Part shown: one piece after another, positions 3,450 to 37,413 of the stretch
How positions within the stretch are numbered: position 1 is the first letter of the stretch
How the letters are laid out: every line of letters begins with the position of its first letter
Source: Acidimicrobiales bacterium
Lineage (GTDB): Bacteria > Actinomycetota > Acidimicrobiia > Acidimicrobiales > SZUA-35
Direction of reading: 5' to 3'
Assembly: GCA_041576015.1 (NCBI GenBank)
Contig: JBFGLT010000001.1
Span: 5,918-69,917, forward strand
Length of the DNA: 64,000 bases
Translations under genes and position numbers: made by a program
Notes under the pieces: model-generated
Told to the model about the DNA's origin: nothing
What the model saw: only the letters and a program-made list of their open reading frames with translations
Database searches by the model: none

Positions 3450-4770
3450 TCTCGCGACCGTCCAGCGTCGATCGGTTCCGATCCATGAACCGCTTGGTCT
3501 CCACGAACGCCACCACCAGCAACATCCAGTCGATGCCCCGTTGCACGACGCCGTGCTCGGTGACCGAGTAGAGCGCAGCGTAGGAGATCATGGCGATCGG
3601 GAAGAGCCCGGCCAGTCCCGGCCGGTCCCGGAGGTAGTGAATCGACCGCCACAGCCCTCGTCCCATGACGATGAGCCAGATGACGAGCCCTACCGCCCCG
3701 ATGTTGAGCAGGTATTCGAGGGCGGCGTTGTGGGCGGTCGGCGGAAACCAGTCGTTCTCGAGCCAGATCTCGTGGGCCGGCGATCCCCAGCCCCCCCAGA
3801 ACGCGTCCCAGCCGTACCCGAGAAACGGGCGCTCGGAGATCGGCACGAGGAGATGGCGCCACAGGATGGTCCGACCGGTCAGCGTTATGTCTCGGCCGAG
3901 CAGGTCCGTGATGAACACGAGGTTGGCGGTCGCGACGAGGATTCCGAACAACCCGGCGGTCACCTCGCTCACGAGCACGGCGCCGAACAGCTGCTTGCGG
4001 GCCCGAAACGTCGTGAACACGATCAGCAACCCGCCAAGCAACACCAGCGACACCAGCGAGGTCTTGGAGTTGGTGCCCAGGACCAACCCGATCGAGCCGA
4101 CCAACCCGATCGACGCGAGGATCCGATGGTGCCGTGACCGGATGGCAAAGACCATGATCAGCGCACCGAGTACCGCTTGCTTGCCGAGCGAGTTGCGGTT
4201 GGTGGTGATGCCCAACCAGTTGGCGCCCGTCGGGGACACCCCGTACCGGGGAAGCGCGAAGATCCACAGGTAGTTCAGGATCATCGAGACGAAGAAGACG
4301 ATGGCGAGGCGGTTGAGGAGCTGCTCCAGGCTGTAGCGGGCGACGAAATAGATCCCGATCAGCACCACCATGAAGAGGGCGACCGCTCTTCGCAGTGTCG
4401 TGTTGAAGTCGACCGACCAGAGCGGGGAGAACAGGATCAATGCGGCGAACGCCATCAGCGCCATGTCGCAGACGATCAGGTAGAACATCGCCTTCGGGCG
4501 CTTCAGTGAGAAGGCCAGCAACGACACGGTCAGTCCGAGGAAGACGGCGATCACGAGAGAACCGCCGGAGTCGACGTACTGCCCTGTCCCGCCCTCGAGC
4601 ACGACGAACCACTCGGTCGGGAGCCCGGCGGTGAGAAACAGCAGGGTGAGCATCCCCACGGCCTGTTCGGCCAGTCGAGGGCGGGCCCGGTAGGCCGGGC
4701 TCAGACGCCACTGCGCCCGCTGCTCGGCCAGCAACTGGGCCGGCGACGGCGTGACGGCGGTCAGCGCCAT
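3397..4770 (-). CDS. O-antigen ligase / Wzy-like polytopic membrane protein
   Basis: 457 aa with about 10-12 hydrophobic segments and a larger loop (GRTILWRHLLVPISERPFLGYGWDAFW), typical of the Wzy_C/O-antigen ligase family. Its start lies 3 nt downstream of the Wzz/kinase stop. Confidence 0.75.
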   Translation of the reverse strand: MALTAVTPSPAQLLAEQRAQWRLSPAYRARPRLAEQAVGMLTLLFLTAGLPTEWFVVLEGGTGQYVDSGGSLVIAVFLGLTVSLLAFSLKRPKAMFYLIVCDMALMAFAALILFSPLWSVDFNTTLRRAVALFMVVLIGIYFVARYSLEQLLNRLAIVFFVSMILNYLWIFALPRYGVSPTGANWLGITTNRNSLGKQAVLGALIMVFAIRSRHHRILASIGLVGSIGLVLGTNSKTSLVSLVLLGGLLIVFTTFRARKQLFGAVLVSEVTAGLFGILVATANLVFITDLLGRDITLTGRTILWRHLLVPISERPFLGYGWDAFWGGWGSPAHEIWLENDWFPPTAHNAALEYLLNIGAVGLVIWLIVMGRGLWRSIHYLRDRPGLAGLFPIAMISYAALYSVTEHGVVQRGIDWMLLVVAFVETKRFMDRNRSTLDGREIILRRHARSRAAVVEPT

Positions 4771-29362: not shown

Positions 29363-30046
29363 GTGGATCTCGTCGATGCCATCCGCCGGCGTCGGATGGT
29401 CCGCTCGTACCGGTCCACGCCGCTCGATTCCGCCGAGGTGCTCGCGGTGCTCGATCTGGCCCGGCGGGCGCCTTCGGCGGGGAATGCCTCGGCCGTGGAG
29501 TACCTGGTGCTCGCGTCCCCCGCCACGGTCGGCCGCTACTGGGATACGACGTTGCCCGAGCCCCGGCGTGGCAAGTTCACCTTTCCGGGCTTGTTCCGCG
29601 CGCCTGTCCTGGTGATCGTCACCACCCGGCCCCAGACCTACATCGACCGGTATGTCGAGGCGGACAAGTGGCACCCCGAACTCGGCGCATCGGCTCGCGG
29701 CTGGACAGTCCCCTACTGGTGGGTGGACGCCGGTGCGGTTGCGCAGAACCTGTTGTTGCTGGCGACCGCACGCGGGATCGGGGCCTGTCTGTTCGGGCTG
29801 TTCGAACACGAGGAGGCGGTCGCCGAACGCTTCGGCATTCCCGAGGATCGGCGATGCGTCGCCACGGTCGCGTTGGGTCATCCGACCGACGATCCGGGAC
29901 CGCCGGGTCGATCGGCGAAGCGCCGGCGACCGCCGATCGGGGAGATCTGCCACTGGGGCCGTTGGGGCACACTGCCGCCGGCGGCGCTCACGTCGACCGC
30001 AATGCCGACAGGATCGACGCCAGATCCGGCGGCAGATCCGACGTGA
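29363..30046 (+). CDS. Nitroreductase-family protein
   Basis: DAIRRRRMVRSY, APSAGNASAVEYLVL and a C-terminal basic/Pro-rich tail. GTG start. Confidence 0.8.
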   Translation: MDLVDAIRRRRMVRSYRSTPLDSAEVLAVLDLARRAPSAGNASAVEYLVLASPATVGRYWDTTLPEPRRGKFTFPGLFRAPVLVIVTTRPQTYIDRYVEADKWHPELGASARGWTVPYWWVDAGAVAQNLLLLATARGIGACLFGLFEHEEAVAERFGIPEDRRCVATVALGHPTDDPGPPGRSAKRRRPPIGEICHWGRWGTLPPAALTSTAMPTGSTPDPAADPT

Positions 30047-30917
30047 ACTCGAGCCACCGGCCGTCTCGAGGGTGCTGGAATCCCAGCCGGCCGGCATGGA
30101 GGAACACCCGAGGGCAGCCCGCCACCACCGGATGGCCGGTGCGCACGGCGCCGTAGCGGTCGTCCCCGACCAGGGGATGACCGATGGCGTCGGCGTGAAC
30201 GCGGATCTGGTGGGTCCGCCCCGTCTCGAGACGAATCCGGAGCAGGGCGACATCTGCGTCCTCGAATCGCTCCTCGACGGTGTAGAAGGTCCGGGCTTCC
30301 TTGCCCCCGGCCCGCACAGCTTGTCGAGTCGGGTGACGCAGTGACCGCCCGATCGGCGCATCGATCAGCCCTTCCTGGGCGGCTGGGAGACCATGCACAA
30401 GTGCGAGATAAGTCCGAGCCACCTGACGGTCACGGAGCTGCTCGCTCAACGCCCGGTGGGCCACATGCGAGCGGGCGGCCATCAACAGCCCGGAAGTCCC
30501 CTTGTCCAGCCGGTGCACGATGCCGGGACGATCCCGCTCTCCGATGCCGGCGATCTCCGGGAAACGGGCCAGCAAGCCCTGGACGACGGTCCCATTATCG
30601 ACCCCGGAGCCCGGGTGGACGATCTGACCGGCCGCCTTGTCGATCACGACGACGTCGGCGTCGGCGTACCGGATGTCGAGGTCGACCGACGGATCTCCAG
30701 CGAGCGCAGCCGGACGGTCGCCGGCCGGTAGTTGTATCCACTGACCGGGCTCGACGCGCAGGGAAGGTTTGTGCACGGTGGCGCCGTCGATGGCCACCCG
30801 CCCCTCGGCAATCAGGTCGACGGCGCGCGCCCGGCTGACCTCCAGGACCATCGCCACCACCCTGTCGATACGTTCTCCGGCGAGTGCACCGGAGACCTCG
30901 ATGGGCTGATCGGTCAT
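29988..30917 (-). CDS. rluD: RluA-family 23S rRNA pseudouridine synthase (RluD-like)
   Basis: ATG at 30917 overlaps the lspA stop (ATGA). S4 domain (RIDRVVAMVLEVSRARAVDLIAEGRVAIDG), catalytic HRLDKGTSGLLM, and GRTHQIRVH. Confidence 0.9.
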   Translation of the reverse strand: MTDQPIEVSGALAGERIDRVVAMVLEVSRARAVDLIAEGRVAIDGATVHKPSLRVEPGQWIQLPAGDRPAALAGDPSVDLDIRYADADVVVIDKAAGQIVHPGSGVDNGTVVQGLLARFPEIAGIGERDRPGIVHRLDKGTSGLLMAARSHVAHRALSEQLRDRQVARTYLALVHGLPAAQEGLIDAPIGRSLRHPTRQAVRAGGKEARTFYTVEERFEDADVALLRIRLETGRTHQIRVHADAIGHPLVGDDRYGAVRTGHPVVAGCPRVFLHAGRLGFQHPRDGRWLEFTSDLPPDLASILSALRST

Positions 30918-31477
30918 CGCCGCCGGGCTGGCGACGGGGTGGAACGGAACGACAGAATCACTGCGGCGATCACCGACAGGACGATCGCCGAGTCGGCCAC
31001 GTTGAACACCGGCCACCATTGGAGATCGATGAAATCGATCACTTCGCCCGAGAGCGGTCCGTCCTCGGCGCGAAGGACCCGATCGATGCCGTTCCCGAGA
31101 GCGCCGCCGACGATGCATGCGTACACAACTCGGTGGGCGGTGTCGCTGGTCCGACTTCCCACCCAGGTGAGGAGGACGGCCATGCACAGGGACAGCACGC
31201 CGATCAGCGGACCGAGCGACTCGGCGGTACCGAACGAGGCACCGGAGTTGAACACCAGGTTCAACCGGAGCGTCCAGATCACGTCGATGCACGCATCCGG
31301 TTCCGAGCAGGCGCCGGGCTCGAGCGCGCGCAGAACCCACCACTTGGTCAGCTGGTCGAGGGCGACGATGGCGCCGGCGATCGCCACCACCTGCGCCAGC
31401 CAGTGCCTCGTGAAACCGGTGTGTGCCTCGGTTACCGGCGAGCGTTGTCGAACATCGAGGTCTTGTGGTCTACGCAC
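30914..31477 (-). CDS. lspA: Lipoprotein signal peptidase (signal peptidase II)
   Basis: DQLTKWWV, NSGASFG and FNVADSAIV (catalytic Asp motifs) with 4 TM segments. The ATG at 31477 overlaps the upstream gene by 46 nt, so the start is uncertain. Confidence 0.85.
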   Translation of the reverse strand: MRRPQDLDVRQRSPVTEAHTGFTRHWLAQVVAIAGAIVALDQLTKWWVLRALEPGACSEPDACIDVIWTLRLNLVFNSGASFGTAESLGPLIGVLSLCMAVLLTWVGSRTSDTAHRVVYACIVGGALGNGIDRVLRAEDGPLSGEVIDFIDLQWWPVFNVADSAIVLSVIAAVILSFRSTPSPARRR

Positions 31478-32250
31478 CGTTCGCTTTCCGGCCGGGCCTC
31501 CAGCCGGGCCTTGGGTATGGCCACGTTATCGACATAGCAGAAGCCGTAGGTCCCGGCATCGATTCGGGCCAGGGCAGCGTCGATGGTCTCGATGTGTTCG
31601 AGGCGGCCCTTCCGCTCGGCGACGAGTTCGGAGATCTGGACGTTGATGCTCGTGCCCTCGCTGGACTCGTCGCTGGAGGTGTCGTCGCCGGCTTCGGCGG
31701 TCTCGAGAAGCTCGTCGAGCTGGGCGGCGAACTCGGCCACCTGCTCGCTGAGCTCGGCGCGCTCGTCTTCGAGCTGGCCGCGTCGCGCCGACAGCCACTT
31801 GCTGTCCTTGAGGTAAGCCGGCTTGACTCCGGCATTCTTCGGAGCGGCCGGTGCGGGCCGTTTCTTGCGCGCTGTCGCTGACCGGGTCGTGGCGGCCGAC
31901 TTCTTCGCCGTGCGTCGGCGGCTGGGAGCCTTGGCGGCCTTCTTCTTGGTAGTGGTTGTGCGGATCACCCTGTCCGCCGATGCCGCCCTCTTCTTGGCGC
32001 CGGCCGCCTTCTTCGCCGCTGACTTGCTGGCAGTCTTCTTGGCGCCGGCCGCCTTCTTGGCCGCCACGGTCTTCGTCGCCGGCGCTCGTTTCCTGCTCAC
32101 GGCCTTCTTGGTTCCAGTCGCCCGTTTCGTGGCCGGCGTCTTCTTCGTCGCCCGCTTCGTCGACGCTCCGCGGGCTGCCGTCTTTTTGGTGGCCGGCTTT
32201 CTGGCCGTCGATTTCTTCGTCGATTTCTTCGTCGATTTCTTCGTGGTCAC
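31432..32250 (-). CDS. DksA/TraR-like protein with N-terminal Lys/Ala/Thr-rich histone-H1-like tail
   Basis: The N-terminal ~150 aa are K/A/T/R-rich (TKKSTKKSTKKS, KKAAGAKK x2). A coiled-coil follows (LSARRGQLEDERAELSEQVAEFAAQLDELL) with an acidic loop. The C-terminus GTYGFCYVDNVAIPKARLEARPESERCVDHK is a degenerate TraR/DksA zinc-finger position. GTG start at 32250. Confidence 0.75.
   Translation of the reverse strand: MTTKKSTKKSTKKSTARKPATKKTAARGASTKRATKKTPATKRATGTKKAVSRKRAPATKTVAAKKAAGAKKTASKSAAKKAAGAKKRAASADRVIRTTTTKKKAAKAPSRRRTAKKSAATTRSATARKKRPAPAAPKNAGVKPAYLKDSKWLSARRGQLEDERAELSEQVAEFAAQLDELLETAEAGDDTSSDESSEGTSINVQISELVAERKGRLEHIETIDAALARIDAGTYGFCYVDNVAIPKARLEARPESERCVDHKTSMFDNARR
32209..32244 (-). 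repeat. Perfect 12-nt tandem repeat x3 inside the DksA-like gene
   Basis: CGATTTCTTCGT x3 on the plus strand, encoding (T/S)KKS repeats. Confidence 0.95.
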
Positions 32251-32364
32251 GGTTGGGTCCCGGATCTTCTTGCACCTGCTGCTGTATGGAGTCGGGGTAG
32301 CCTAGTCCCAAAAGGGGCCGAACTTCACGCTCGACGGGCTCGGGGAGGCCGGTAGATTGCAGGC

Positions 32365-35300
32365 ATGCCTGCGAGTCGACCTGCGAGCTATCCAAACGTT
32401 CCAGCCCGACCGGACATTCCCACCATCGAGGAGAAGATCATCTCCTGGTGGCAGGCAAACCGGGTGTTCGAGTCGACCGTCGAGCGGCCGGCGGGCGGTG
32501 AGCCGAAGGGCACCTTCGTCTTCAACGACGGGCCTCCGTTCGCCAATGGACTCCCCCACTACGGTCACCTGCTCACGGGCTACGTGAAGGACATCGTTCC
32601 CCGCTACCAGACCATGCGGGGCAACCGGGTGAATCGCCGGTTCGGGTGGGATTGCCACGGTCTGCCCGCCGAGATGCAGACCGAGCAGGAGACCGGGGTG
32701 TCGGGACGCAAGGCGATTCTCGATTACGGGATCGACCGGTTCAACCAGGCGTGCCGGACCTCGGTGCTCCGCTACACCACCGAGTGGGAGGACTACGTTA
32801 CCCGGCAGGCCCGGTGGGTCGATTTCTCCGACGACTACAAGACCATGGACCTCGACTACATGGAGTCGGTGATGTGGGCCTTCAAACGGCTGTGGGACCA
32901 GGGCCTGATCTTTCAGGCCCACCGGGTCATGCCGTACTCGTGGGGGGCACAGACGCCGCTGTCGAACTTCGAGATCCGGCTCGACGACGCGACGCGCCCG
33001 CGTCAGGATCCCGCCGTCACCGTCGAGTTCAGCCTCCGGACCCGACCCGGTGATCCTGGCCCGCTGCGAATGCTGGCGTGGACGACCACGCCGTGGACGC
33101 TTCCGTCCAACCTGGCGCTCGCCGTCGGGCCCGACCTTGGCTACGCGGTCGTGGCCCACGAGGGCCGCTTCCTTGTTCTGGCCGAGGCGTCGCTCCCCAA
33201 GTACGCCCGCGAGCTCGGGGAGGAACCGACCATCGTCGAGACCTTCACCGGCGCCGCTCTCGCCGGGCGCGAGTACGAGCCGCTGTTCCCTTACTTCGCC
33301 GACAACCCGAACAGCTTCGTGGTCCTGGCGGCCGGGTTTGTCGAGACCGGCGAGGGCACCGGTGTCGTTCACCTGGCGCCCGGATTCGGCGAGGACGACC
33401 AGGTGGCGTGTACCGAGGCGGGCATCCCGCTGGTCGTCCCGGTCGACGACGCCGGCGAATTCACCGCGGAGATCACCGACTTCGCCGGAATGAACGTGTT
33501 CGACGCCAATCCGAAGGTCATCGCCCGCCTGAAGGAGGCGGGCCGAATCCTGCGGCACGAGACGTACGACCACAACTATCCGCACTGCTGGCGGACCGAC
33601 ACGCCCATCATCTATCGAGCCGTGAACTCCTGGTACGTCCGCGTCACCGACCTGACGGACCGGCTGCTGGCAGCAAACCAGCAGATCAACTGGATCCCCG
33701 CCCACGTGCGTGACGGTCAGTTCGGCCGTTGGCTTGAAGGGGCGCGGGATTGGAGCATCAGCCGGAACCGTTTCTGGGGCGCACCGATCCCGATCTGGAT
33801 GTCGGACGATCCCGACCACCCGCGCATCGATGTCTACGGATCCCTCGACGAGATCGAGGCCGACTTCGGGGTGCGGCCCGCCGACCTCCACCGGCCCTTC
33901 ATCGACGAATTGATCCGCCCCAATCCGGACGACCCGACCGGTCGGGCCATGATGCGACGCGTACCCGAGGTGCTCGACTGCTGGTTCGAGTCCGGATCGA
34001 TGCCCTACGCCCAACTGCACTACCCGTTCGAGAACGTCGAGCGGTTCGAGGACCACAATCCGGCTGACTTCATCGTCGAGTACGTCGCCCAGACCCGCGG
34101 GTGGTTCTACACCATGCATGTCCTGGGCGTTGCCCTCTTCGACACGCCGGCGTTTGCAAACGTGATCTGTCACGGGGTGGTGCTCGACAGCGAAGGTCGC
34201 AAGCTGTCCAAGAAGCTACGGAACTACCCCGACCCGATCGACGTCTTCAACAACGTGGGTGCCGATCCGATGCGTTGGTATCTCACCAGTTCGCCGATAC
34301 TTCGCGGCTTGGACACGCGCATCGAGCCCGACGATTCGGGCGTCCGGGAAGTCGTGCGCCAGGTGCTCAACCCGCTCTGGAGCGCATATAGCTTCTTCAC
34401 CCTGTACGCCAACGCCGAGCGGCATGTCGCTGTGGAGCGGACCGACAGCCGTCACGTTCTGGACCGCTACATCCTGGCCAAGACCAGCGAGTTGGTCGAA
34501 CGGGTCACCGACACAATGGACCGCTACGACCTACCCGGCGCATGCGCTCACGTCAGCGCCTATCTCGATGCCCTCACGAACTGGTACATCCGCCGATCTC
34601 GCGAACGCTTCTGGAACACCAGCGCCGACGGTGTGGTCGACGTCGACGCCCTCGACACCCTGTACACCGTCTTGATCACGCTGATGAAGACCGCTGCTCC
34701 GCTCCTGCCGATGATGAGCGAGGAGATCTACTTGGGGTTGACCGGTGGCGCCGAGTCGGTCCACCAGCAAGCGTGGCCCGACCACCACCGGCTCGGTCCT
34801 GATCCCGACCTCGTCGCGGTCATGGACGAGGTGCGGGCGGTCGCTCGTGCGGCGCTGTACCTCCGAGACGAGCAGGGTCTCCGGGTGCGACAGCCGTTGC
34901 CGGCCATCACCGTCGCCGGAGAACGCGATCTGGACCTCACCCCGTTCCGCTCATTGCTCGCCGAAGAGATCAACGTCAAGGATGTCCGCTTCTCCACCGA
35001 GGTCTCCGACTTCGGTGAGTTCCGGCTCCAACCGAACGCCCGGGTGCTCGGACCGCGCATCGGAGGCGCCGTGCAATCGGTGATCGCTGCCGCCAAGTCC
35101 GGCGATTGGACCGACAACGGAGACGGCACGGTCACCGTCGCAGGTCAGCTGCTCGGCGACGGCGACTACGACCTGACGCTCCACCCGGCCGCCGGGGTGG
35201 TTGCGGCGTCGCTCCCCGGCAATCGGGCCGTCGTGGTGCTCGACACGGAGCTCACGCCCGAACTGGTGGCCGAGGGCCAGGCCCGCGACCTGGTGCGCGC

Positions 35301-35535
35301 CATCCAGAACCATCGCCGGGAAGCCGGTCTGAACGTCACCGACCGGATCCACCTGCGCCTCAGCGGCGAGCCGTCGCTCGTGGCGGCCATCGAGCCCAAC
35401 CTCGAGTGGGTGGCCGAACAGGTACTCGCCGCAACCGTCGTCGTCGACGATCCCGATGCAAACGCCTACCGGGCGGTCGCACCGGTCGAGGGAGGGGCAC
35501 TCGAGATCAGCTTGGCCGTCGCCAACCGACGCTGA
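32365..35535 (+). CDS. ileS: Isoleucyl-tRNA synthetase (type 2, long form)
   Basis: 1056 aa with PFANGLPHYGHLL (HIGH), KLSKKLRN (KMSKS) and a CP1 editing domain. Confidence 0.98.
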   Translation: MPASRPASYPNVPARPDIPTIEEKIISWWQANRVFESTVERPAGGEPKGTFVFNDGPPFANGLPHYGHLLTGYVKDIVPRYQTMRGNRVNRRFGWDCHGLPAEMQTEQETGVSGRKAILDYGIDRFNQACRTSVLRYTTEWEDYVTRQARWVDFSDDYKTMDLDYMESVMWAFKRLWDQGLIFQAHRVMPYSWGAQTPLSNFEIRLDDATRPRQDPAVTVEFSLRTRPGDPGPLRMLAWTTTPWTLPSNLALAVGPDLGYAVVAHEGRFLVLAEASLPKYARELGEEPTIVETFTGAALAGREYEPLFPYFADNPNSFVVLAAGFVETGEGTGVVHLAPGFGEDDQVACTEAGIPLVVPVDDAGEFTAEITDFAGMNVFDANPKVIARLKEAGRILRHETYDHNYPHCWRTDTPIIYRAVNSWYVRVTDLTDRLLAANQQINWIPAHVRDGQFGRWLEGARDWSISRNRFWGAPIPIWMSDDPDHPRIDVYGSLDEIEADFGVRPADLHRPFIDELIRPNPDDPTGRAMMRRVPEVLDCWFESGSMPYAQLHYPFENVERFEDHNPADFIVEYVAQTRGWFYTMHVLGVALFDTPAFANVICHGVVLDSEGRKLSKKLRNYPDPIDVFNNVGADPMRWYLTSSPILRGLDTRIEPDDSGVREVVRQVLNPLWSAYSFFTLYANAERHVAVERTDSRHVLDRYILAKTSELVERVTDTMDRYDLPGACAHVSAYLDALTNWYIRRSRERFWNTSADGVVDVDALDTLYTVLITLMKTAAPLLPMMSEEIYLGLTGGAESVHQQAWPDHHRLGPDPDLVAVMDEVRAVARAALYLRDEQGLRVRQPLPAITVAGERDLDLTPFRSLLAEEINVKDVRFSTEVSDFGEFRLQPNARVLGPRIGGAVQSVIAAAKSGDWTDNGDGTVTVAGQLLGDGDYDLTLHPAAGVVAASLPGNRAVVVLDTELTPELVAEGQARDLVRAIQNHRREAGLNVTDRIHLRLSGEPSLVAAIEPNLEWVAEQVLAATVVVDDPDANAYRAVAPVEGGALEISLAVANRR

Positions 35536-35540
35536 GCGTC

Positions 35541-35576
35541 GCTGGTTCGCCGGCTACCGGCGGCGTCCGAACCAGC
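35541..35576. terminator. Hairpin at the ileS/divIVA convergent junction
   Basis: GCTGGTTCG ... CGAACCAGC: a 9-bp stem with an 18-nt loop that contains a CCGG-CTA-CCGG sub-hairpin. It starts 6 nt after the ileS stop and overlaps the last codons of the divIVA-like gene. There is no U-tract. Confidence 0.3.
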
Positions 35577-37413
35577 CGCCCGACTCCCCCTTGTCGGCTT
35601 CCTCGGTGAGGAACTTGTGGAGCGTCTCGTCCTCGGAGGCCTGCTCACCGCCGGTCATCTGTCGGAGCTCGTCGAGAAACGGATCATCGGGCGGCAGCTC
35701 CTCGAACCGGGCGTCGGGATGGAGAGGCCGGGACGGCTCGTCGGCCGGTGCTGCGGTCCACTCGTCCGGCTCCATCTCCACCGCCGGTGGCTCCGGCGGG
35801 GCCGTCCACATCGATGGTTCGGCGACCGGTGGCGGCGCAGGTGGAGGCGGGGGCTCGTCGACTACTTCGGGGGCGGGCGGGATCGTCGTCTCTCCGACCA
35901 GTGGCGGCGGCGGATCGTCGTGCTCCTCGACTGCGTCCTCGGGAACGGCGGTGTCCCGCAACCGGGACACGCGGCTCGCCAGTCGCGAACGCGCCTGCTC
36001 GGCCAGACCGCTCATTCCGGACCGGCCGGTTGCCTCATCGGGCACCGGCGAGTCGACGTCGATGCCGAGACCGGTCGGATCGGTCACCCGCGAGTCCTCG
36101 CCCAGGTCCGAATACTGAGGGTAGGCGGCCGGATCGGCGGTTTCGGGCACCGAGGCGAAAACCGACTCGGCCGTCGGGCTGGCCGGAATCCCGGCCGGCG
36201 AGGAATCCTCGGCGACGAAACCGGCGGTGGCGAACGGGTCGGATTCGACAACTTCGGGCCGATCCTCGAACGGCGCGGCCCCGGTGCCGAATGGCTCGCT
36301 CGGCGCCTCGACGGGCTCTGTCTCGGTCCCGAACTCCTCGCTCGGTGCCGCAAATGGCTCGGTCCCGACGGCCCACGATTCGCCGGCCTCGCCGGCGGTG
36401 CCGGCATCGGTGTCGTCCTCGGCGACCGGCTCGCCGACATCGTCGTCGTCGGGATCCGCCGGTTGTTCGTCGCCGGTCCCGGCGAGACGGCCCTCGACGT
36501 CGTCCCACGGGCTCTCCTCGACGGGAGCAACGTCGTCAGCATCGCCATCGAGCGCCTCGCCGTAGTCCAACGCTTGCTGCTGGGCGGCCGCCACCTCGGT
36601 CTCCAGTGCCCCGATCGAGTGGCTGGTCACCTCCAGCTCGGTGAGGTCCTCGATGATGCCGATGTCGGCCGGATCCGGGGTTTCGGCCTCGGCCAGCCGG
36701 TCGGGGTCGTCGAGCACCGAGCTGATCTCCGCCAGCGCCGTTCGGACCCCCCGGCGCCGTTCGGTCAGATAGCTCTCGAAACGGGATACGTCGGCCGCCA
36801 GGTCGTCACGGGCGCGTTCTAGCTCGGCGATCTCAGCGAGGAGCTCGTCTCGTTTGGCACCCTGGTCGGCGACGAGCTCGTCCTCGATCGCCTGCTTCCG
36901 GGATTCGGCGTGTTCGAGCGCATCGGCGAGCAATTGCGCTCGCTCGGCTTCGGCGTCGGCCAGCATTTGTTCGCGTTGGGCATGGGCCTCCGCTTTGAGC
37001 TCCTTTGCCTCGGCTCGGGCGCCGGCCATGATCGAGTCGGCCTTGGCGGTCGACTCCCGCCTCAAGGACTCGGCGTTCGCCTCGGCATCGCGCACCGTCT
37101 GGTCGGCGGTCCGTTGCGCCAGCAGGAGCGTGTTCCGCAACGTTTCGTCGAAGTTGTCGTCCGGAATTGCGGCCTGGTCACCGCTCGGTGGCCGCTCCTC
37201 TTCTTCGAGCTGGTGAATCCGCTCATTGGCCGTCGACAGACGCTCATTGGCGTCGTCGAGCTGGTACTGGAGCGACTCGATCTCGTCGGCGAGCGGAGCA
37301 AGCGTCTCGAGTACACGGTCGACTTGTGACTTGGAGTACCCTCGCATCTCCTCATCGAATCGCACCGACGGGATCCGGCGGAGCAGACGGAGCTTGTCGC
37401 TACCTACGGTCAT
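35554..37413 (-). CDS. divIVA: DivIVA-domain protein (Wag31-like) with long acidic/Pro-rich C-terminal region
   Basis: N-terminal VRFDEEMRGYSKSQVDRVLETL (DivIVA domain), about 200 aa of coiled-coil, then about 330 aa of low-complexity D/E/P/A-rich sequence ending GGWFGRRR. Confidence 0.85.
   Translation of the reverse strand: MTVGSDKLRLLRRIPSVRFDEEMRGYSKSQVDRVLETLAPLADEIESLQYQLDDANERLSTANERIHQLEEEERPPSGDQAAIPDDNFDETLRNTLLLAQRTADQTVRDAEANAESLRRESTAKADSIMAGARAEAKELKAEAHAQREQMLADAEAERAQLLADALEHAESRKQAIEDELVADQGAKRDELLAEIAELERARDDLAADVSRFESYLTERRRGVRTALAEISSVLDDPDRLAEAETPDPADIGIIEDLTELEVTSHSIGALETEVAAAQQQALDYGEALDGDADDVAPVEESPWDDVEGRLAGTGDEQPADPDDDDVGEPVAEDDTDAGTAGEAGESWAVGTEPFAAPSEEFGTETEPVEAPSEPFGTGAAPFEDRPEVVESDPFATAGFVAEDSSPAGIPASPTAESVFASVPETADPAAYPQYSDLGEDSRVTDPTGLGIDVDSPVPDEATGRSGMSGLAEQARSRLASRVSRLRDTAVPEDAVEEHDDPPPPLVGETTIPPAPEVVDEPPPPPAPPPVAEPSMWTAPPEPPAVEMEPDEWTAAPADEPSRPLHPDARFEELPPDDPFLDELRQMTGGEQASEDETLHKFLTEEADKGESGGWFGRRR

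Follow-up and report, generated by a model that had tools for sequence, protein, structure and literature searches.

A 64,000-nucleotide stretch of contig JBFGLT010000001.1 from an Acidimicrobiales bacterium (hereafter the window, meaning this whole stretch) contains, at 31432..32250 on the minus strand, an open reading frame (ORF) of 272 codons plus stop with a GTG start codon. The encoded protein of 272 amino acids consists of a basic tail followed by a DksA-like domain. An identical protein is also called in GCA_041610795.1 and in one Logan assembly. The same order of modules was described for DdbA (SCO2075) of Streptomyces coelicolor, which carries its H1-like domain at the N-terminus and its DksA-like one at the C-terminus (Aldridge et al. 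2013, PMC3643593). We consider it likely that the window gene (hereafter the DdbA-like gene) is the Acidimicrobiia counterpart of Streptomyces DdbA, a two-module protein. This reading is built on what was observed of the gene and its start codon, its composition and repeats, the fold and family membership of its C-terminal half, its synteny, and the purifying selection acting on it.

Comparison with Streptomyces DdbA

The likeness to DdbA includes both the order of the modules and the position of the gene. The H1-like region stands before the DksA-like domain in both proteins. The genes in the window are arranged in the order murG-murC-murB-ftsQ-ftsZ-ylmD-ylmE-sepF-(130-aa ORF)-divIVA, followed by ileS, the DdbA-like gene, lspA and rluD. 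In S. coelicolor, the order is ftsQ, ftsZ (SCO2082), ylmD, ylmE, sepF, sepG, divIVA, then SCO2076 (Ile-tRNA synthetase), and SCO2075 was noted to be close to ftsZ SCO2082 (PMC3643593). Since SCO2076 is ileS and follows divIVA, SCO2075 holds the same slot as the window gene, directly behind ileS, where the dcw/ftsZ-divIVA block ends. In addition, the length of the tail varies among orthologues in both groups. The preliminary description of this DNA had placed the basic tail of DdbA at the C-terminus, so that an N-terminal tail appeared to be distinctive. This was mistaken, because the H1-like domain of DdbA is N-terminal (PMC3643593).

There are also clear differences. DdbA keeps four cysteines and two tip aspartates (PMC3643593), whereas the window protein has two cysteines and Ser/Asp and Glu at the tip. 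The N-terminal domain of DdbA has 93 amino acids (the N-terminal construct expressed has 138) (PMC3643593), whereas the tail of the window protein has about 145. DdbA belongs to streptomycetes, and the host of the window gene is an Acidimicrobiales bacterium. As for function, the N-terminal construct of DdbA shifts DNA in an electrophoretic mobility shift assay, whereas the C-terminal construct does not (PMC3643593). The chlamydial protein CTL0322, which is also named DdbA, was set aside as an unrelated protein with a colliding name.

The basic N-terminal tail

The N-terminal tail (residues 1-150, 31801..32250, minus strand) is a Lys/Ala/Thr-rich, polycationic region that is predicted to be disordered. 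The residues K, A, T, R, S and P account for 89% of it, with 52 Lys and Arg residues against 2 Asp and Glu residues, and its isoelectric point (pI) is 12.0. Residues 151-272 are acidic, with a pI of 4.5. In the full-length AlphaFold model, residues 1-144 showed no secondary structure, and the predicted local distance difference test score (pLDDT) was 44-57. Near the N-terminus, an exact 12-nt tandem repeat of 3.2 copies (32206..32244, minus strand; 100% match and score 78 in Tandem Repeats Finder; family D4) encodes three TKKS units at residues 3-14. A 31-nt direct repeat (31989..32064, minus strand; family D3), the two copies of which are 45 nt apart and 97% identical, encodes the duplicated KKAAGAKK at residues 65 and 80. 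The G+C content at third codon positions (GC3) in the frame of the gene is 0.81 for the tail and 0.86 for the C-terminal domain, the G+C content of the window being 67.6%. The exact repeats and the GC3 of 0.81 across the tail are far beyond chance. A short non-repetitive island, SADRVIRT (residues 91-98, 31957-31980, minus strand), is found within the low-complexity tail.

The composition and both repeats had been described correctly beforehand; the likeness of the basic tail to histone H1, which had also been proposed, held as well. Family models of H1-like proteins searched with the whole protein all gave scores below their cut-offs, namely 28.5 bits against 80 for NF038053, 12.4 against 135 for NF038052, and 16.9 against 40 for PF07382 (Pfam HC2). 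The tail alone matched NF038053 weakly, at 23.2 bits, and none of seven shuffled tails matched. Since the real tail matches weakly and the shuffled tails do not, the likeness lies in the AKK/KKA repeat pattern and not in composition alone. The resemblance of the tail to H1 is thus one of repeat pattern, far short of demonstrable homology. Similar Lys/Ala-rich low-complexity AKK/KKA repeats are present in Chlamydia Hc2, in the Burkholderia H1-like protein and in the tails of HupS and Hlp. The tails of HupS and Hlp are C-terminal to an HU fold, whereas that of the window protein is N-terminal to a DksA fold.

Translation of the tail was further analyzed by comparison with the closest relative. 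Among 5.8 billion protein clusters, this was P0001, which is 86% identical and annotated with 120 amino acids. On the contig of P0001 (hereafter L001), a separate 152-aa ORF is located just upstream of P0001. The DdbA-like gene of L001 (L001:5476-6363) is thus called as two proteins of 152 and 120 amino acids, and ileS on the same contig (L001:2157-5324) is in three pieces. Since ileS is also broken, the frame disruptions in L001 are probably errors of long-read assembly, and the database entries are probably fragments. A three-frame reading of L001 gave one continuous gene, interrupted twice, both times within the tail. The L001 tail begins with VTTKKSAKKATKK, continues with a 33-nt repeat of 8.7 copies (VPAKKKAVAKK), and then runs through ...ADRVIKTT...APKNAGLKPAYLKDKKWL into the DksA-like part. 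The rejoined tail has 155 amino acids (59 Lys and 43 Ala), against 150 in the window protein. The ends of the tail and the ADRVI[RK]TT island (KADRVIKT in L001) are conserved between the two proteins, while the middle is not.

Within the ORF, no possible start precedes the GTG at 32250. Before the DksA-like domain, further in-frame ATG, GTG or TTG codons are found only at residues 51, 62 and 95; the next is at residue 171, and none is present between residues 96 and 170. The codon of V95 is GTA in L001, and V95 is therefore not a conserved internal start. Residue 171 is within the first helix of the coiled coil, and a start at this position would cost half of that helix. A conserved internal start after residue ~150, which had been named beforehand as the case that would make the tail spurious, was looked for and not found. 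Over the first 13 codons, 9 synonymous but only 2 non-synonymous changes separate the gene from that of L001, and the GTG is conserved. We conclude from these comparisons that the tail is translated. Identity to the L001 protein is 87% over the 137 C-terminal residues. For the C-terminal domain, the non-synonymous rate (dN) is 0.10 and the synonymous rate (dS) is saturated, giving a dN/dS of about 0.05, which indicates strong purifying selection.

The DksA-like domain

The DksA-like domain (residues ~145-272, 31435..31818, minus strand) is predicted by AlphaFold, Foldseek and hidden Markov models (HMMs) to comprise a short helix at its N-terminus, a pair of long antiparallel helices, a hinge and a helix at its C-terminus. 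The NCBIfam dksA models gave significant matches, TIGR02420 with E=1.9e-12 (residues 157-264) and NF033459 with E=3.3e-10. A profile of the orthologues (57 homologues) matched E. coli DksA (1tjl) with E=1.9e-22 and P. aeruginosa DksA2 (4ijj) with E=5.8e-17, and phmmer with the single sequence gave E=4e-4 against 1tjl. The AlphaFold2 model of residues 138-272 had a mean pLDDT of 84.6 and a predicted template modelling score (pTM) of 0.72. In the numbering of this fragment, the model showed helices 13-53 and 60-95, a tip of low confidence, a small hinge, and a helix at 123-134. In the Foldseek search against the PDB, the top matches were all DksA proteins, the best being DksA2 (4ijj), with a template modelling (TM) score of 0.78, and E. 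coli DksA in its free form as well as in its RNA-polymerase-bound form (7khi, TM score of 0.73). Profiles and predicted fold together identify the C-terminal half as a DksA family domain. The DksA architecture given in the preliminary description was thus confirmed, as was its very acidic loop, which corresponds to the coiled-coil tip; the structure prediction that it recommended returned the DksA fold.

The coiled-coil tip (residues 186-201, EAGDDTSSDESSEGTS; 31648..31695, minus strand) is a loop of low pLDDT between the long helices and is the probable counterpart of the D71/D74/A76 tip of E. coli DksA. MAFFT placed the E. coli tip residues inconsistently, and the HMMER profile alignment was used for the tip instead; the MAFFT alignment was trusted in the hinge and C-terminal columns only. 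In the HMM alignment, in which the loop is aligned with uncertainty, the D of QFD in the family aligns with E. coli D71 and the E of GEG with D74. The motif GDxQFD[DE]ExGEG is found at the tip of 65 of the 66 other syntenic orthologues. The tips of the window protein and the L001 protein read GDDTSSDES[SN]EG and differ from each other at one position, and GDDTSSDESSEG occurs in this lineage only. In the very acidic tip of the window protein, E198 is aligned with D74, and S191 followed by D192 is aligned with D71. The counterparts of E. coli R125, R129 and K139 are kept.

Three DksA proteins were compared with the domain. E. coli DksA (1tjl, 5vsw, 7khi) has the same domain order and fold, with conserved sequence in the hinge and in the first part of the C-terminal helix (RLEARP...C.D.KT); it differs from the window protein in its four-Cys zinc ribbon, its DxxDxA tip and its lack of a tail. 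P. aeruginosa DksA2 is the best structural match, with about 25% identity, and it too has no basic tail. We take DksA2 to be a Zur-regulated back-up paralogue expressed under zinc limitation; the window gene, in contrast, is a syntenic and apparently primary copy. A second DksA-like gene was sought within the 64-kb window and was not found. The hinge of Chlamydia trachomatis DksA (6ptg), GICDVSGEEIP...MTV, is similar to the CSR[VY]-type hinges that most Acidimicrobiia orthologues have. This protein, from a different phylum, has one cysteine against two in the window protein and no basic tail, and it shows that loss of cysteines is tolerated.

The hinge region

The hinge (residues 238-262, 31465..31539, minus strand) is a degenerate zinc ribbon, C238-Y-V-D241 ... 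C259-V-D-H262, which aligns with C114/C117/C135/C138 of E. coli DksA. The C4 zinc ribbon CxxC-x17-CxxC is not present, and C238 and C259 are the sole cysteines of the whole protein; the one cysteine per knuckle reported earlier is therefore correct. The first and third cysteines are kept, and they are the same two as in DksA2 (CQET...CIEA in 4ijj against CYVD...CVDH; that is, CxxT...CxxA against CxxD...CxxH). Two-Cys DksA2 is a zinc-free, functional DksA (PMC4850274). Since the window protein keeps the same two cysteines, a zinc-free fold is the most likely, and by this analogy the hinge probably holds no zinc.

The comparison of cysteines among orthologues, which had been suggested beforehand, showed that their loss is common in the class, with 4, 2, 1 or 0 remaining. 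At the four ligand positions of the syntenic orthologues, CCCC was found in 14, CGCH in 4, CDCH in the window protein and L001, CSRH in 3, CSR[YFEV] in 32, CSTA in 2, and SSRE or SSLE in 11. Most orthologues of the class therefore have one cysteine or none. A 2016 paper states that one, two or four cysteines are retained in the hinge of every known DksA orthologue (PMC4850274). The 11 orthologues without any cysteine in the domain are L019, L020, L027, L039, L050, L053, L054, L056, L058, L063 and L078, in most of which the match lies at about 4001-4375 of the locus. A CCCH hinge, with His for the fourth Cys, was observed in the non-syntenic DksA-like paralogues L067, L069, L071, L079 and L083. 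These come from cultured Actinomycetes genera (Terrabacter, Actinomycetospora), an Amnibacterium metagenome-assembled genome (MAG), and two unclassified Actinomycetota MAGs.

Distribution among Acidimicrobiia

One genome per species was scanned with a trimmed alignment of six sequences as the query, and the best 80 loci were analyzed. They were mostly Acidimicrobiales or Acidimicrobiia MAGs. Streptomyces was absent from these best 80 loci, and the top 120 of 7148 profile matches were all environmental. The ileS of the window shares 81% identity with that of L001 and 70-75% with those of Acidimicrobiales/Acidimicrobiaceae MAGs, which makes an Acidimicrobiales bacterium the most likely host. Where the upstream region is complete (62 loci), the DksA-like gene is upstream of lspA and/or rluD, and mostly adjoins ileS as well. 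In 59 of these 62 syntenic orthologues, the longest ORF leaves room for 30 or more additional N-terminal amino acids. Because the extensions were taken from raw DNA as the longest possible ORF, their lengths (median 118 amino acids) are upper limits; they contain 27% Lys and Arg and 2% Asp and Glu, 46 of the 59 have a clearly basic composition, and many consist of overt AKK-repeat arrays. Tail length among the orthologues ranges from about 12 to more than 200 amino acids.

By these counts, the tailed DksA-like architecture is the rule in the class Acidimicrobiia. The 2013 statement that DdbA orthologues are found only in streptomycetes (PMC3643593) would therefore be out of date. In a literature search, no later study of DdbA-type proteins beyond streptomycetes was found. 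Three orthologues have nearly no tail (6-22 amino acids), namely L008 (P0003), L004 and L011. P0003 looks genuinely short (MATKDAAKKSALPKYMTDKKWL), while L004 and L011 are long-read MAGs and may hold frameshifts. A DksA-like gene with a tail, and with lspA and rluD after it, was also observed in L026, a 'Burkholderiales' MAG in which the gene adjoins ileS as well, and in L014, an 'Acidobacteria' MAG. These two are probably mis-binned or mislabelled.

Gene neighbourhood

The identities of the neighbouring genes are taken from the Pfam families of the same genes in the loci L002 and L003, in which the DdbA-like protein and rluD are identical to those of the window and ileS and lspA are 99-100% identical. 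The divergent neighbour ileS (32365..35535, plus strand) is identified by PF00133 (tRNA-synt_1) on the 99.8%-identical gene in L002. The 3' neighbour on the same strand as the DdbA-like gene, lspA (30914..31477, minus strand), is identified by PF01252 (Peptidase_A8) and was taken from the ORF list. For rluD (29988-30917, minus strand), the families S4 and PseudoU_synth_2 are recorded for the identical gene. The ileS / lspA / rluD neighbourhood that had been named from the sequence is therefore borne out. In the window, ylmD carries Cu-oxidase_4 and ylmE carries Ala_racemase_N. The longest lspA ORF begins 46 nt inside the 3' end of the DdbA-like gene (31432-31477), and the same is seen in L001 (6318-6363). 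Either this is a genuine overlap or translational coupling, or the start of lspA is called too far upstream.

The DdbA-like gene and ileS have a divergent intergenic region of 114 nt (32251..32364) in common, which was aligned with that of L001. Some 50 nt before the GTG, a conserved block contains a candidate -10-like hexamer, TAGGCT (32299-32304, minus strand), which is TATGCT in L001. A scan for consensus sigma-70 promoters upstream of the DdbA-like gene gave no match, and the assignment of the hexamer to a promoter is putative. Two terminator-like matches fall inside the coding repeat and are at chance level; they were rejected. The DivIVA homologue at 35554-37413 (minus strand) is unusually long, with 619 amino acids (708 in L001), about 63 of which match the DivIVA model.

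Discussion

If the protein acts as was proposed for DdbA, its two modules would have separate roles. The disordered polycationic tail of about 145 residues, with its rapidly evolving Lys/Ala repeats, would bind DNA without sequence specificity and help to compact it, by analogy with the N-terminal domain of DdbA and the H1, Hc2 and HupS tails. The DksA-fold domain, comprising the last ~128 residues, would enter the secondary channel of RNA polymerase by its acidic tip and modulate initiation, as DksA does. The hinge is short of two of the four zinc ligands, and the domain would most likely fold without zinc. Together, the tail and the DksA-fold domain would link RNA polymerase to the nucleoid, as was proposed for DdbA.

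Several observations weigh against this reading. The score of the single sequence against PF01258 was 14.9 bits, under the gathering cut-off of 24.9, and the equivalog cut-off of TIGR02420 was not reached either (47.6 bits against 115.5). The search with PF01258 had been proposed as a check of family membership; taken by itself it fell below the threshold, although the NCBIfam dksA models, the orthologue profile and the fold place the protein in the family. The low scores fit the lost cysteines and the divergent coiled coil. The tip has neither the canonical DxxDxA nor the GDxQFD[DE]ExGEG of the other orthologues, and the activity in the RNA-polymerase channel may have been changed or lost with it. 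The window protein and L001 together form a long branch of the C-domain tree, though their ileS is ordinary. The long branch and the changed tip imply that the coiled coil changed rapidly for a time and then came under strong constraint (dN/dS 0.05). D241 and H262 are possible metal ligands and are conserved in L001. The orthologue tails are measured as upper limits. Orthology to DdbA is proposed here from architecture and gene position, and the activity of DdbA on RNA polymerase is itself known from genetic suppression only (PMC3643593). DNA binding, RNA-polymerase binding and zinc independence of the window protein are what we infer by analogy.

It is worth considering other interpretations of these results. 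The basic region could be an upstream extension that was called by mistake, the real protein being a stand-alone DksA-like factor of about 120-130 amino acids. Long open frames do arise by chance in high-GC genomes, P0001 is called with 120 amino acids beside a separate 152-aa ORF upstream, and the extensions in L004, L008 and L011 do not exceed 22 amino acids. The rejoined L001 tail, however, is continuous and of the same length as that of the window protein, and the conserved GTG is followed by codons in which synonymous changes outnumber non-synonymous ones by 9 to 2. There is no start codon at residues 96-170 from which the shorter protein could begin, and a start at residue 171 would remove half of the first coiled-coil helix. 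With an extension of at least 30 amino acids allowed in 59 of 62 orthologue ORFs, and 46 of the 59 clearly basic, a mis-called extension seems extremely improbable. Alternatively, the DksA-like half may no longer act on RNA polymerase; the protein would then be nucleoid-associated only, with a coiled coil that acts as a spacer or in oligomerisation. This would agree with the long branch, the loss of zinc ligands, and the replacement of the tip motif kept by 65 of 66 other orthologues. The residues aligned with E. coli R91, K94 and K98, which we take to be contacts of ppGpp (guanosine tetraphosphate) site 2, are I, L and T here, in a part of the coiled coil where the alignment is unreliable. 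On the other hand, the dN/dS of 0.05 applies to the whole C-terminal domain, and the new tip differs at only one position from that of L001. The Glu aligned with D74 is retained, as are the residues that correspond to R125, R129 and K139, and the predicted fold superposes on RNA-polymerase-bound DksA (7khi, TM score 0.73). We regard a loss of action on RNA polymerase as quite unlikely.

The hinge allows a further interpretation, in which C238, D241, C259 and H262 bind a metal as a Cys2-Asp-His site and the protein is a DksA that responds to zinc or to redox state. Asp and His can both serve as zinc ligands, they stand at exactly the two substituted positions, and they are conserved in the 87%-identical L001. 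The CCCH paralogues suggest that His can stand in for the fourth Cys. The nearest organisms by ileS identity, however, have Gly at position 2 (CGCH in L004, L006, L010 and L011), and His stays at position 4 even in the CSRH orthologues. Since position 3 is Arg in the latter, the His there would not be kept for metal binding. Most orthologues of the class have at most one cysteine, and the fold of DksA2 needs no zinc (PMC4850274). A metal site in the hinge thus appears rather unlikely. The reading as a DdbA counterpart could also be carried further. In the lineage of the window protein and L001, the working end of a DdbA-type protein may have been rebuilt, with the new tip GDDTSSDESxEG and the Cys2-Asp-His hinge both now strongly constrained, and the standard factor coupling nucleoid and RNA polymerase in Acidimicrobiia may be a DdbA-type protein that has 2, 1 or 0 cysteines. 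We offer this as a speculation with only a small chance of being right. Should it hold, with the hinge binding metal or sensing redox and the tip acting differently, the protein would be a distinct regulatory switch that couples nucleoid binding to transcription. A class-wide coupling factor would also be at odds with two claims in the literature, namely that DdbA is restricted to streptomycetes and that every DksA orthologue retains at least one cysteine in the hinge.

The gene is thus described best as a divergent member of the known DdbA type that probably does not depend on zinc; the type was undescribed in this class. An N-terminal H1-like tail on a DksA-like domain is the published layout of DdbA, which is now extended from Streptomyces to Acidimicrobiia. 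For annotation, the gene should be named DdbA-like or TraR/DksA-family; its closest relative in the database is wrongly split in two. Dozens of uncultured genomes carry this layout at the ileS-lspA position, with hinges that are short of two, three or four zinc cysteines. They form a natural series for asking whether zinc and the cysteines matter in DksA-type factors. The finding also raises the question of whether the tethering of a DksA-type factor to DNA is an old actinobacterial strategy.

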